Shown one piece after another: positions 1 through 4,041 of a DNA stretch of 15,505 bases. A model generated the notes under the pieces. It had not been told where the DNA came from, made no database searches, and saw only the letters and a list, made by a program, of their open reading frames with translations. The position numbers and the translations under genes are program-made. Within the stretch, counting starts at the first letter, position 1. Each line of letters begins with the position of its first letter. Source of the DNA: a virus (taxonomy: Duplodnaviria; Heunggongvirae; Uroviricota; Caudoviricetes); the IMG/VR virus record IMGVR_UViG_3300028592_000006, positions 64,001 to 79,505 of that record; one strand, 5' to 3'.

Positions 1-425
1 ACCACCTGGTCCTCCACGAAGCCGTAGCTTCCAAACGTGCCATCAACCGTGCCACCGGGCGGGTAGAGGAATTCACCTGTCACCGTGCCACCGCCAACCG
101 GAGCCTGGAGATACTTGTCCCGTCGGATGATATAGGTCCGGACAAGTTCATCCCCGTTGATTTCCCAATTATAGGCATCCTGTGACTCGCGCTCGGCTGC
201 GAACCACATCTTGTAGCGCTGGCCACCAGAGTCCAACGGCTCGCGATAGACCATCTTGTGGTTGGGAAAGCGGGTCGAGTCGGGATGAGGATCGTCAATC
301 TGGATGTCCCATGCCCGTTGGAGCTTCAGATCAACCTTTTCATAAAACAACAGGTCAGATCCAACACCGTGGAAGGTGAAGACCTGGAAGCGTTCTTCGG
401 ACGGGTTGCTGAGTTGCTTCGCCAT
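1..425 (-). CDS. Probable virion tail/structural protein, N-terminal part only (runs off the left edge of the window)
   Basis: Not in the ORF track. Manual translation from ATG at 423-425 gives MAKQLSNPSEERFQVFTFHGVGSDLLFYEKVDLKLQRAWDIQIDDPHPDSTRFPNHKMVYREPLDSGGQRYKMWFAAERESQDAYNWEINGDELVRTYIIRRDKYL..., open to position 1 (141 codons). Codon use matches the other phage genes. The tail role is inferred from context and recalled similarity to uncultured-phage proteins. Confidence 0.75.
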   Translation of the reverse strand, partial: MAKQLSNPSEERFQVFTFHGVGSDLLFYEKVDLKLQRAWDIQIDDPHPDSTRFPNHKMVYREPLDSGGQRYKMWFAAERESQDAYNWEINGDELVRTYIIRRDKYLQAPVGGGTVTGEFLYPPGGTVDGTFGSYGFVEDQV

Positions 426-454
426 GCGGGAGGGTATCTAATCGTTTCTTACAT

Positions 455-664
455 TCAATCCTTCTTGGAGTAGAGCCAGCAGGCCTTGCCATTGAGCACC
501 ATCTTGCGGCGCTTCAGGGCCTTGTTGGTGGAGAGGATTCGGCTCATCTGGACCCGGCTCATCCCGGCCTCTCCCGCGGCCTCCTCGATGGTGAATTCAC
601 CGGGTTGGCGGGGTGTGGCGGGACTGATCCCCACATCCATCAGCAGCTGGCTCAGGGCACTCAC
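455..664 (-). CDS. Small putative helix-turn-helix DNA-binding protein
   Basis: C-terminal part of track ORF 455..790. FTIEEAAGEAGMSRVQMSRIL looks like an HTH. The start is placed at GTG 662-664 (MSALSQLLMDVG..., 69 aa) because it forms a GTGA overlap with the stop of the duplicated phosphoesterase tail; ATGs at 715 and 724 are alternatives. Confidence 0.65.
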   Translation of the reverse strand: MSALSQLLMDVGISPATPRQPGEFTIEEAAGEAGMSRVQMSRILSTNKALKRRKMVLNGKACWLYSKKD

Positions 665-747
665 AGAATCCCTTGTGGACTGATCCAATCGTTGTTTTCC
701 TTGATTGCGTGCCATGCGTTCCATTTCCCGGTTTTGGTGTTGATCAA
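661..747 (-). pseudogene. Displaced original 3' end of the metallophosphoesterase gene (28 codons plus stop)
   Basis: Translates as LINTKTGKWNAWHAIKENNDWISPQGIL*. It aligns without gaps (18/28 identical) to the last 28 aa of CDS 1460..2191, LINTKTGKWSGFHVVKENGDWLTPMGQL*. Confidence 0.85.
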
Positions 748-1463
748 TTTCCGTAAATCTTCCGTGGATTCTTTCCATGAGAACCAGCACCTTTTGACCG
801 GTTCTGCTTGAGCCAAAGTGGCTTAAGATTTGAATAATGATTCAAACGAACCACGTCTTCATGGGTTTTTGCGCTCGCCATGGGAACAACGTGATCAATT
901 TCCCATAGATGGCGATTGTCCCATGTCATACCGACATCAAACAAGGATTCAATATGGGTGAAAAATTGCGCCCAAGTGCATCCAAGAATTTCGAGATTTG
1001 ACGTTTTAATCTCGCGAATCCCCTTCAACGAAATCGCCTTGTTCACTGAGCGCCGATAACGTCCAGCCAAATTGAACAAAGGATCAGTTGCACGCTTGTG
1101 ATTATGCCATGCGGCAACACGAGCCAATTGACGATCTTTGTTTTTGGATGCCCATTCCTTTCGCTTTTCGCAATGGTAACGACGTACATCGGGGCACTCG
1201 CGACGTTTGGCGCTACGGATGCGCTCCTTAGCTCGAACTTGGTCCCTCTTGGAGTAGGCTTTTTGTTTTTGAACTCGGACCAAACGATAATCTGAATCGT
1301 TTTTATACTTCTCATTTGCTCGAGCACGTTTGCGCTCAATACGGGCGTTCAAAATCTCACGAGTAGCCCAGACCTCGCCTCGTCGTTTGTCGTATTGAGA
1401 AAACACCATTCCTGTCTCAGGATGGACCTCTCCTTGTTTCCACTTTTTTTGTTCAAGCATCAT
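744..1463 (-). CDS. HNH-family endonuclease (free-standing homing endonuclease-like)
   Basis: C-terminal WEIDHVVP...NHYSNLKPLWLKQNRSKG is an HNH motif, preceded by a basic helical region. GC is about 40-47% in three sampled 60-nt lines versus about 65% in a sampled line of the neighbouring gene. ATGA overlap with the upstream stop. Confidence 0.9.
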   Translation of the reverse strand: MMLEQKKWKQGEVHPETGMVFSQYDKRRGEVWATREILNARIERKRARANEKYKNDSDYRLVRVQKQKAYSKRDQVRAKERIRSAKRRECPDVRRYHCEKRKEWASKNKDRQLARVAAWHNHKRATDPLFNLAGRYRRSVNKAISLKGIREIKTSNLEILGCTWAQFFTHIESLFDVGMTWDNRHLWEIDHVVPMASAKTHEDVVRLNHYSNLKPLWLKQNRSKGAGSHGKNPRKIYGN

Positions 1464-1555
1464 AGTTGTCCCATTGGGGTTAGCCAGTCACCGTTTTCCT
1501 TCACAACGTGAAATCCTGACCACTTACCTGTTTTTGTATTAATCAAACCTCCAAC
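748..1555 (-). mobile_element. Homing-endonuclease cassette (recoded phosphoesterase 3' end plus HNH gene)
   Basis: AT-rich segment bounded by two copies of the same phosphoesterase C-terminus. Third-position codon use switches from C/G-ending to A/T-ending near 1555. Boundaries are approximate. Confidence 0.7.
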
Positions 1556-2191
1556 CCAGCCGTTGCGCCATGCGAGCTTGGCTGGCGTGCGGTCGGCGTA
1601 GGTCATCAGGTTGATGTCGGCCAGGCATCCGACCGAGAATGACTGGGAGCCGTCAATGAAGCGGGCCACGTAGGTGTCGGGCTTGTGAACGTGCCCGTGC
1701 AGGCATTCACCCCAGTTCTCGAAGTGGGCCTTGGCTGGATACATTGTCGCCCTGAACCCGTGTATCAATTTTGGTCCTCCCTCCGGCATCCGCAGGAAGC
1801 GGTTGACGTGGTAGGGGACGAACTCGATCCGGCGCTTGCGGAATTCGCGTTCGGAGTCGGAGGCAAGCTTCTGGCAGGTCTCCCGCAGGATGCCATCCGC
1901 GCAATGGGTCGAGTGGAGCCAGATCCGGTCGTCGTGGTTTCCCAGCGTCAGGAAGTTCGGCCGGAACACGTCGAGGAACTCCAGCCCGCACTGGTAGTCC
2001 TCGCTGATACCATCGGCCTTTTCCTCCTGCGAGGCCCCGCGCCGCAAGGGTGAGAAGTCCCACAGGTCCCCGAGGTGAATCCGGTAGTGGGGGTTCCATG
2101 AGTCGATGAACGACTGGAGTTTCAAGACCGCGGCCTTGTCCACCAGCCGGCCGTGGTTGTCTGCCACGGCAATGAATCGCTTGTAGCTCAT
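1460..2191 (-). CDS. Calcineurin-like metallophosphoesterase
   Basis: Full motif set: ADNHG, HLGDLWD, LGNHDDR, IHG, HGHVH. Start placed at ATG 2189-2191 (MSYKRFIAVAD), which overlaps the upstream stop as ATGA; 243 aa. Confidence 0.93.
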   Translation of the reverse strand: MSYKRFIAVADNHGRLVDKAAVLKLQSFIDSWNPHYRIHLGDLWDFSPLRRGASQEEKADGISEDYQCGLEFLDVFRPNFLTLGNHDDRIWLHSTHCADGILRETCQKLASDSEREFRKRRIEFVPYHVNRFLRMPEGGPKLIHGFRATMYPAKAHFENWGECLHGHVHKPDTYVARFIDGSQSFSVGCLADINLMTYADRTPAKLAWRNGWVGGLINTKTGKWSGFHVVKENGDWLTPMGQL

Positions 2192-2484
2192 GGAATGATC
2201 AGTTGTTCCCAGGCAGGCCAAAACAGGTTGTCCAGGCACCGGACGATGGCCTCTTCCTCCATCCCTTCGTTGTAGGCCACTCCACCGATGGACAGGGATG
2301 CGTGCTTCATCTCGTGCCGGAGGGTTTCGTAGAAGCACTTCTCGGCCTTCGGTCCTATGCGGATGATCTTCTCGTCAAACAGCCACTGGCCGAACTCCTC
2401 GAGCTCCGGGTCATATTCGACGACAATGGACCACCCCCCGATGGAGACCCGCTGGACCTTGAGAAATGGAGGCGGGTGGCTCAT
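2188..2484 (-). CDS. Small zincin-like metallopeptidase (HEXXH)
   Basis: TLRHEMKHASL motif with a downstream EEEAIVR candidate third ligand; 98 aa; abuts both neighbours. Confidence 0.75.
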   Translation of the reverse strand: MSHPPPFLKVQRVSIGGWSIVVEYDPELEEFGQWLFDEKIIRIGPKAEKCFYETLRHEMKHASLSIGGVAYNEGMEEEAIVRCLDNLFWPAWEQLIIP

Positions 2485-3102
2485 TCAATTTATTGGTCCT
2501 TCGACCAAGAGATACCAGACGTAGTCCATCTTGGCTGCGAGGGTGGAGTCCCACACCTGTTGGAGGAAGTCCTTGGCCACGTCACGGGGAAGGGTTTGGC
2601 ATCCCTCCGAGCTGGTTCCGTTGAATCCTCCCGGATGGACGTTGATGGCGAAGTAGCCTGACTCCTGGTAGTTCCGCTTGTCTCCCGGTGCGTAGGTGCG
2701 GGTGACGCTGAACCGTCCATCATTCGGAGCCTTCACCTTGCGGGCTTCCTCGAGTGTCATCTGTCGCAGGGCGGGAGTGACGCCCTTGTGGGGTCCGCGC
2801 CGGAACGGCCAGCAACCGACATTGAGCACGGCCATTGGCTTGCCGGCATTTCCATTCCAACCGATGCGCGATGGGTCGGTATTGGCCTGGTGTGCCACCA
2901 TCCCCTTCGGGGTGACGTAGGCTATCATGTCGTCCCAAAGTCCGAAATCATTAGCCTCAGGATTGCCCTCGCTTTTGAGCCAGTAGCCACGAACGGCAAA
3001 AAGAAAGCGGTCAGGCAAAGGCCCGCCGGGTCCGCACCGGTCCCAGTGTTCTTTAGCCAGAACTAACACCTTTTCACGAGTGATTTGTGGAATGCGTTTC
3101 AT
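2485..3102 (-). CDS. Putative endolysin with a YkuD/L,D-transpeptidase-like Cys-His catalytic motif
   Basis: FAINVHPGGFNGTSSEGCQT resembles the H...S-x-G-C motif of YkuD-fold enzymes (H156 and C168 counting from the 3102 start). It lies next to lipoprotein and holin-like genes. Start placed at ATG 3100-3102 (MKRIPQ); the track starts at 3186. Confidence 0.65.
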   Translation of the reverse strand: MKRIPQITREKVLVLAKEHWDRCGPGGPLPDRFLFAVRGYWLKSEGNPEANDFGLWDDMIAYVTPKGMVAHQANTDPSRIGWNGNAGKPMAVLNVGCWPFRRGPHKGVTPALRQMTLEEARKVKAPNDGRFSVTRTYAPGDKRNYQESGYFAINVHPGGFNGTSSEGCQTLPRDVAKDFLQQVWDSTLAAKMDYVWYLLVEGPIN

Positions 3103-3103
3103 T

Positions 3104-3202
3104 TCAAAGCAGGTCGTAGGTTTCCCAGTCGAGGAACTCGGCAAGGAGTCCTCCCTTGGTGATTTGCCGCCAGCCACGGTCGGCATTGGCGGTGCGTTTC
3201 AT
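3104..3202 (-). CDS. Small hypothetical protein (32 aa)
   Basis: MKRTANADRGWRQITKGGLLAEFLDWETYDLL*. The ATG overlaps the upstream stop (TGATG) and its stop lies 1 nt before the next ATG (TGAAATG), so it fills the gap exactly. Too short for the ORF track. Confidence 0.6.
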   Translation of the reverse strand: MKRTANADRGWRQITKGGLLAEFLDWETYDLL

Positions 3203-3510
3203 CACTTGTTGCGGTTCTCGATCTCCAGTGGCGTGATGCGGGCCTCCAGAGGGGCCTTTGGGGCGTTTTCAAGCGCCTCGTGGATGTCAGTGCCGGAACC
3301 ACCCTTCTGCTCCACCACGCGGGCTTTAGGGGCAAATGCGATGGCAGTGGCCGTGATGGCTGCCACCGCACCGGCATCAGGCGTCTTGATGACGGACTTG
3401 GACCCATCCGCATGGTAGGTCGTGGTCGTCGTGCAGGAACAGGTCATGGACAGGAAGGTCCATGCAACCGCCCATGCCGCTCCAAGGAGTATGTAGTAAG
3501 TCGCTTTCAT
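3202..3510 (-). CDS. Putative lipoprotein (possible o-spanin-like lysis protein)
   Basis: MK start, hydrophobic stretch YYILLGAAWAVAWTFLS, then a lipobox-like TCSC. Located in the lysis-like cluster, with an ATGA overlap with the upstream gene. The spanin role is inference. Confidence 0.6.
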   Translation of the reverse strand: MKATYYILLGAAWAVAWTFLSMTCSCTTTTTYHADGSKSVIKTPDAGAVAAITATAIAFAPKARVVEQKGGSGTDIHEALENAPKAPLEARITPLEIENRNK

Positions 3511-4040
3511 GCCGCTTCATCGCTGTTGGTTGATGCCTTGGTCTTCGGGGTCAGAACCTTCGACCAGGCTCCGCTGTTCTTCTGGTTGGCTGCAAACAAG
3601 CCGCCCCATAGACGGACAGCCCCGTGGAAGGTGCCGGCCAGCAGGAAACCGGACAACTTCATGATGTCGTAGAATGCCGCGTCACACTGGAAGCGGCTGA
3701 AAGGGAAATGATCCGTCGCGATGAACTGGTAGAGGACATCATGGACCAGCGAGGCTAGCCGGGTGCAGTGGGGATCAGGGGTTCCCAGCCAAAGAAAGGT
3801 AAAGCGGGCCTTGGGAGAGCATCCGTCCCAACTATAGTGCGGCCGGATGTGCAGCTTGTTCTTCACCAGCCTTGCCCACTCGATCCCGTTCTTGTCGTAG
3901 AACAGGATGGGGTCGGGAAAGGTGTTGGATGGCAGGTCGAGATGAACCGTGATGGAGTCCAGCGTCGTGAAGCGGTAGCGTCCACCGCGGTTCTCGCGGT
4001 ATTGCTCGTCCCTCACGAATACTGGAAGCTCCCTGATCAT
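3507..4040 (-). CDS. DUF1353-like phage protein
   Basis: YSWDGCSP...ASLVHDVLYQ...RFQCDAAFYDIM...HGAVRLWGG matches the recalled DUF1353 pattern (WDGxS, HD, D, AVR-x-GG). Confidence 0.75.
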   Translation of the reverse strand: MIRELPVFVRDEQYRENRGGRYRFTTLDSITVHLDLPSNTFPDPILFYDKNGIEWARLVKNKLHIRPHYSWDGCSPKARFTFLWLGTPDPHCTRLASLVHDVLYQFIATDHFPFSRFQCDAAFYDIMKLSGFLLAGTFHGAVRLWGGLFAANQKNSGAWSKVLTPKTKASTNSDEAA

Positions 4041-4041
4041 T

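Follow-up and report, generated by a model that had tools for sequence, protein, structure and literature searches.

Gene hybrids of the mORF type have been described in fungal mitochondria, in atp6, atp9, cox2, and nad3 of Glomus sp., atp9 of Rhizopus oryzae, and cox2 of Mortierella verticillata (PMC3630166), and a hybrid of this type in atp6 of Allomyces macrogynus was described by Paquin et al. 1994, as cited in PMC3630166. The locus presented here is located in a window of 15.5 kb (the whole stretch of DNA that was analysed), which constitutes the final part of a 79.5-kb uncultured viral record. Both in the mitochondrial hybrids and in the window, the gene core is followed by an in-frame foreign C-terminus, an endonuclease ORF, and the native C-terminus stranded downstream, the order in the window being core (2191-1556), inserted end (1555-1460), HNH endonuclease gene (1463-744), and native end (747-661). 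In both, the native copy is like that of close relatives and the inserted one is divergent, with a nucleotide identity between the copies of 63.5% in Glomus atp6 and 63% here. On this comparison, the architecture of the cassette matches that of the mORF hybrids of fungal mitochondria, here in a phage. It differs from them in that the genome is that of a phage and not an organelle, the endonuclease is of the HNH type and not LAGLIDADG or GIY-YIG, and the target is a metallophosphoesterase (MPE) gene. In addition, the nuclease ORF is separate and coupled through an ATGA overlap, whereas that of the mORF hybrids is fused in frame, and the stranded end (referred to below as the orphan) still bears the start signals of the next gene.

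The second related group consists of the free-standing homing endonucleases of T4-like phages, such as SegF/gene 56, SegG/gene 32, and MobE/nrdB (PMC2988022). As in the window, a promoter-less, free-standing nuclease cassette lies beside its presumed target, overlaps the end of the upstream ORF, and brings along flanking donor sequence when it is inherited (co-conversion). In T4, the recipient sequence gives way to that of the donor and a stranded copy is not described in the review (PMC2988022), whereas the window keeps the full 28-codon native tail. The sequence-only reading of this locus had cited segF/gene 56 as the precedent; this comparison falls short, because the T4 case represents co-conversion without a stranded copy, and it is the mORF gene hybrids of mitochondria that provide the exact precedent. 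The HNH domain is N-terminal in the T4 Mob enzymes and C-terminal in the protein encoded by the window. A full-text literature search found no phage report of the stranded-tail layout.

Substitute 3' ends of target genes are also carried by integrase-driven elements, including e14 and phage 21 in icd and many islands in tRNA genes. Insertion of such an element within the 3' end of a gene is harmless owing to the replacement that it carries, and the displaced original is found at the far junction, as in the window. These elements use a site-specific recombinase and att sites, whereas the window has no integrase and the driver would be a nuclease together with host recombination. The locus is probably a phage MPE gene into which a free-standing HNH homing-endonuclease cassette with a replacement gene end was inserted.

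Gene layout and the two tail copies

All genes treated here are encoded on the minus strand. The stop codon of an upstream gene for 98 aa (2484-2188) is overlapped by the start ATG of the MPE gene (ATGA). The MPE gene (1460..2191, 243 aa) matched PF00149 in Pfam (E 5e-6) and phrog_221, metallo-phosphoesterase, in PHROG (E 1.5e-9), and its protein has relatives at 55-75% identity. The gene is considered a hybrid of two parts: a native body comprising codons 1-212 up to ...AWRNGW (1556..2191), which has a GC3 of 0.84 and is collinear with relatives, and a predicted foreign replacement 3' end (1460..1555, GC3 0.39), which consists of V-G-G, an attached 28-codon tail, and the stop codon. It is followed by the free-standing HNH endonuclease gene (744..1463, 239 aa), which was identified by a match to phrog_1035 and by a motif in the family alignment, and then by the putative orphan native tail (661..747, 28 codons and stop), which contains neither a frameshift nor an internal stop. 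Three extra codons, ATT TAC GGA (I-Y-G, 750..758), possibly belong to the orphan, and the same 9-mer is present in the related locus L071. The next gene (455..664) encodes a small HTH-like protein of 69 aa, for which the HTH profile matches in the Pfam search (E 0.04-0.1) were weaker than the cut-off.

These reading frames are linked by three successive 4-nt overlaps. The stop of the MPE gene is overlapped by the ATG of the HNH gene (ATGA, 1463-1460), the HNH stop and the orphan overlap at TTGA, where the stop TGA (746-744) is formed from the first two codons of the orphan, and GTGA (664-661) combines the TGA of the orphan with the GTG (664-662) that starts the next gene. A Shine-Dalgarno-like AAGGGA for this next gene sits within the last codons of the orphan. 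A promoter scan found no promoter-like site, and terminator-like sites were no more frequent than expected by chance.

The MPE ORF ends with LINTKTGKWSGFHVVKENGDWLTPMGQL and a stop codon (attached tail, 1546-1460), and the orphan, LINTKTGKWNAWHAIKENNDWISPQGIL and a stop codon, is found at 747-661. The two copies are of equal length and align without gaps, with 18/28 amino acids and 55/87 nucleotides identical; the sequence-only reading had reported this duplication, and its coordinates, peptides, and identity were all reproduced exactly. Among the codons that specify the same residue in both copies, 9/18 carry synonymous differences, and 6 of these are found among the first 8 codons. The earlier description of the attached copy as recoded implies too much design; with 10 non-synonymous differences in addition to the synonymous ones the copy is better called a diverged homologue, most likely derived from another MPE lineage.

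Composition sets this region apart from its surroundings. GC content is 42-49% from approximately 1555 to approximately 660 versus roughly 60% on either side, and that of the HNH gene is 46% versus 59% for the window. The attached copy (GC3 0.39) has A/T-ending codons like those of the HNH gene (0.43), as had been noted in the sequence-only reading; GC3 is higher in the orphan (0.64), the MPE body (0.84), and the next gene (0.83). The body-minus-tail difference in GC3 is 0.45 with the attached copy, versus a mean of 0.01 (sd 0.12, maximum 0.27) in 79 relatives; with the orphan it is 0.20, which is similar to that of the nearest relatives. The A/T-ending codons begin three codons before the attached tail with GTT GGA GGT (V-G-G, 1555-1547), at a position that is [LIVAM][YFH]G in all others, VGG being unique among about 200 relatives. 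Because of both the codon usage of V-G-G and this pattern in the relatives, the start of the foreign piece was placed right after ...AWRNGW, at approximately 1555. Composition thus links the attached copy to the HNH gene, and the insert (about 1555-748) is judged on these grounds to be foreign to the phage.

The native allele in related phages

For comparison, 80 MPE loci with 55-74% identity were fetched from IMG/VR, and a complete C-terminus was available in the alignment for 78 of them. The C-terminus was nearer to the orphan than to the attached copy in 78/78, in agreement with the earlier expectation that orphan-type sequence would form the in-frame C-terminus of HNH-free relatives. The orphan aligned to the C-terminus of all 78 relatives (E about 1e-9 to 1e-12 among the matches listed), and this match is not due to chance. 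Tail identity was regressed on body identity using 3003 pairs of relatives; relative to this trend the orphan had a mean residual of -0.03 (rank 21 of 78), and the attached copy had a mean residual of -0.17, an outlier matched by just 1/78 relatives. At tail positions conserved in at least 90% of sequences, the orphan keeps 15/16 residues and the attached copy 12/16 (hand count from the alignment), and in well-conserved DNA columns the occupied allele showed 12 mismatches to the family consensus compared with 5 for the body joined to the orphan. These comparisons identify the orphan as the native MPE end and the attached copy as foreign. The earlier proposal that an HNH cassette swapped in a foreign 3' end and left the original behind is thereby supported, by the relatives as well as by composition.

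The junction downstream of the orphan was also compared. The start codon of the next small gene overlaps the MPE stop codon as ATGA, GTGA, or TTGA in 25 relatives, with the start lying 3 nt before the stop ends; all of the nearest relatives (L002-L006, L062) belong to this group. As had been predicted, homologues of the HTH-like gene are found immediately downstream of MPE in relatives. The GTGA junction between the orphan and the HTH-like gene is this native junction, preserved. At the start of the HNH gene, CTATGA is identical, letter for letter, to the stop/start junction of L002 and L006, and the HNH gene therefore occupies the start position of the donor's next gene.

Relatives carrying both tail copies but no HNH gene, which the sequence-only reading had considered as contrary evidence, were not found. 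Searches for second tail copies in the relatives returned just weak, gapped, or short matches. One of these, L004 5221-5307 (E 0.06), is a gapped resemblance to the MPE tail that lies at the end of a different frame, some 1.3 kb downstream of that gene, and probably reflects chance or a common C-terminal motif. No HNH-less genome with an MPE identity above 75% was found, and because of this we infer the empty allele from more distant relatives. One of the two closest MPE relatives (L166, 75% identical) is an 8.5-kb contig of NCBI GCA_041191225.1 from a Verrucomicrobiota MAG bin, and Verrucomicrobia phage P8625 also carries an HNH homologue; together these give a weak hint of the host group.

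Distant database relatives nearest to the attached copy were P0020 (19/28), P0081 (18/28), and P0049 (17/28). P0081 and P0049 are among the few distant relatives that are marginally nearer to the attached copy than to the orphan, a pattern that would point to the donor lineage rather than count against a foreign origin of the attached copy. A donor-type MPE tail (GF / LTP / GQL) was sought and not found, and the contigs of P0081 and P0027 end too soon downstream to be informative. A near-identical cassette or donor was likewise not found in the databases searched: blastn of GenBank phage DNA with window positions 1-3200 gave no match, a 53-nt exact junction pattern had no match in IMG/VR, and the HNH protein used as a close-relative query in IMG/VR returned none. 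A contig look-up for the HNH protein yielded no entry on record; identical copies of the HNH protein, and likewise of the hybrid MPE protein, are known from 2 contigs each.

An HNH gene was present at the 3' end of the MPE gene in L048 alone among the 80 MPE loci; elsewhere near the MPE gene, HNH genes were located on the 5' side in L013 and about 1.1 kb away in L018. The presence of HNH is sporadic at one site among otherwise collinear relatives. Conversely, only 2 of approximately 240 fetched HNH-centred loci (L048 and L087) adjoin an MPE gene, which rules out a general linkage, and the HNH family as a whole is therefore not MPE-specific. The HNH homologues P0005, P0008, and P0006 have unrelated neighbours, and MPE is absent there. 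The best HNH homologue shares 45% identity over 59% of the query.

The HNH protein

The HNH protein matched phrog_1035, 'endonuclease VII', in PHROG (E 9e-10), and tblastn against GenBank phages returned homologues bearing the annotation HNH endonuclease or endonuclease VII; no Pfam family, including the HNH models, was matched at E <= 0.1. An alignment with 17 homologues revealed invariant D190, H191, N212, and K224 and a near-invariant N221 within a C-terminal motif of the classical HNH type, W-x-I-D-H-x-x-P ... N-L-x-P-x-W-x-x-x-N-x-x-K. Based on this conservation, the gene looks intact and the catalytic motif conserved, and the protein is a putative nuclease.

In the AF2 model (pLDDT 88), a beta-hairpin and a long helical region are accompanied by a unit that surrounds the motif and consists of two strands (residues 187-191 and 213-217) and a following helix (218-223). 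Foldseek returned nothing at E <= 0.001, and the matches to beta-beta-alpha-metal nucleases at E >= 0.5 (autotaxin nuclease-like domain, VcaM4I, Gme HNH, and Cas9 HNH) were weak. The top VIA-align match was caspase-activated DNase (Z 5.1), and a PDB sequence search with the protein gave no match. Residues 15-146 form a short beta-hairpin with a W..W...DG.VFW motif and then six helices that are long and very basic. No profile or solved structure matched this N-terminal part, two thirds of the protein, which is presumably the DNA-binding region.

Residues 228-239 are unconserved, have a pLDDT below 50, and end in K-I-Y-G-N. The ATT TAC GGA sequence at the end of the HNH gene corresponds to the I-Y-G codons that precede the tail in relatives such as L071, where the 9-mer is identical. 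These codons are offset by 2 nt (AA, 749-748) from the frame of the orphan and now form the end of the HNH ORF; they may represent three more native codons, out of register by 2 nt. A longer orphan extending into the 3' end of the HNH gene was considered and rejected: local alignment did not exceed shuffled sequences (p 0.86 against the window's own upstream sequence and 0.34 against relatives), and the I-Y-G resemblance is position-specific only. A 12-nt exact direct repeat (GGAAATTGATCA on the minus strand) was observed at 741-752, spanning the junction between the HNH stop and the orphan, and at 892-903, within the codons of the catalytic W-E-I-D-H motif; approximately 0.1 such repeats are expected by chance in a 1.9-kb stretch (own estimate).

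Related insertions and origin of the cassette

L048 is considered a second case of an HNH gene accompanied by a foreign MPE 3' end. Its HNH protein is 31% identical to that of the window, and the gene starts 2 nt after the MPE stop. Nucleotides 1-420 of its MPE gene are 80-95% identical to those of L016, L012, L017, and L018, whereas nucleotides 420-729 are 53-68% identical to these loci and 68-78% identical to L056, a pattern indicating that the 3' part of approximately 310 nt is a donor-derived foreign tract. The HNH stop is directly followed by GATCCTGTAG, which corresponds to the final codons and the stop codon of the native tail in L034 and L069. The remnant of the native tail consists of its final 9-10 nt, followed by the native spacer and the next gene, and in this respect L048 is nearer to the T4 SegF/gene 56 type. 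The right junction TTG|ATC is common to the window and L048 cassettes, and the TGA of the HNH gene consists in both of TG and the A of a native Ile codon. An unlikely possibility is that the common junction, with HNH proteins only 31% identical, reflects an old site-specific 'tail-replacing' lineage that co-diverged with the MPE gene.

In L013 and in the distant L087 (MPE 32% identical), an HNH-family gene abuts the MPE gene on its 5' side with ATGA overlaps. A foreign 5' tract in the MPE gene of L013 was tested for and not seen. In L013, about the last 50 nt of the HNH gene (3934-3989) match the DNA that precedes the MPE gene in the HNH-free L015 and L007 at 74-97% identity; the HNH ORF of L013 probably ends by reading into native DNA, as that of the window seems to. 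In L087, a 62-kb phage contig, an amidase-like gene (cell-wall type, as judged from its sequence), a 274-aa HNH gene, and the MPE homologue are chained by two ATGA overlaps (1941-4041).

The HNH gene of the window and the adjoining MPE 3' end would have come from a different, lower-GC phage and entered at approximately codon 212/213 (near 1555). In a mixed infection, the nuclease would cut an HNH-less MPE allele near the conserved ...NGW|LYG|LIN... codons; the left end of the break would be repaired by homologous recombination with the MPE gene of the donor, and synthesis would proceed through the donor tail and the HNH gene. The right end would then be joined at the start of the recipient's own tail in the window, and at the end of the tail in L048. 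Because its replacement tail has diverged, the occupied allele would be cut poorly by the nuclease. Both cleavage by the HNH protein and its target site are predictions. The outcome visible in the window is a hybrid MPE, in which 31 foreign codons follow the native body, together with an HNH gene that is coupled to it in translation by ATGA where relatives start the next gene, and a native 28-codon tail stranded as an orphan that is predicted to be untranslated. A recent event is suggested by the contrast in composition and by the intact state of both the orphan and the HNH motif.

The alternative that survives best, and that we nevertheless consider unlikely, is module exchange without homing. 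According to this explanation, the low-GC tail and HNH gene entered as a block by illegitimate or short-homology recombination between co-infecting phages, and the HNH gene is a passenger that marks the recombination boundary or has another role. It would accommodate the facts that cleavage by the HNH protein is a prediction, that nuclease genes are known at the boundaries of phage-phage exchanges (PMC10448857), and that members of this HNH family occur in many unrelated contexts. It does not readily explain why the block comprises exactly one gene plus the segment of the adjacent gene required for that gene to stay whole, or why a second, very divergent HNH is present at the same site of the MPE gene and is likewise accompanied by foreign MPE 3' sequence; the intact catalytic motif also speaks against it. 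A local tandem duplication of the MPE tail, with subsequent insertion of the HNH gene between the copies and drift of one of them, would produce two equal-length copies 800 nt apart, yet it is highly improbable, as the translated copy and not the untranslated one departs from the family, the codon usage of the attached copy fits the HNH gene and not the phage, and half of the same-residue codons differ synonymously. Since the record is an uncultured viral contig, a metagenome assembly chimera of two strains joined at the common tail was also considered and can be dismissed with similar confidence, given that the copies have no long identical run at which an assembler could switch, GC3 is equally high on both flanks, 2 contigs are on record for each of the two proteins (hybrid MPE and HNH), a finding that speaks against a one-off artefact, and L048 independently shows the same layout.

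With insertion of a homing-endonuclease cassette as the preferred reading, the before/after comparison with the 78 relatives would show that a selfish nuclease gene can invade a phage coding region without destroying the gene, the same solution as that found in fungal mitochondria. The predicted recognition site comprises the conserved ...NGW-LYG-LIN-x-KTG... codons, and the occupied and inferred empty alleles form a natural substrate pair for an HNH family that is poorly characterised and has its catalytic domain at the C-terminus. Cassettes of this kind would make hybrid genes, move gene ends between phage lineages, and leave small orphan ORFs, which gene callers may annotate as genes.

The next gene still takes its ribosome-binding site and its GTGA start overlap from the last codons of the orphan; because of AAGGGA and this overlap, at least the 3' end of the orphan is taken to be under selection. 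A translated relay, in which ribosomes finishing the HNH gene reinitiate at TTG (TTGA, 747-744), read the 28 codons, and stop at GTGA, was considered doubtful; no good Shine-Dalgarno motif precedes the TTG of the orphan. If such a relay did operate, the cassette would keep the native coupling between the MPE gene and the next gene via the three 4-nt overlaps, and selection would hold the frame of the orphan open. In L048, the next gene has its own spacer and almost nothing of the orphan is left. In the relatives with a spacer of approximately 135 nt between the MPE gene and the next gene, this spacer holds a conserved small hydrophobic ORF of ~30 aa (MIAEI...VVWVVIF...), located at about 4760-4860 in L017 and L018 and at about 1915-2010 in L048, which may be the gene for a tiny membrane peptide.
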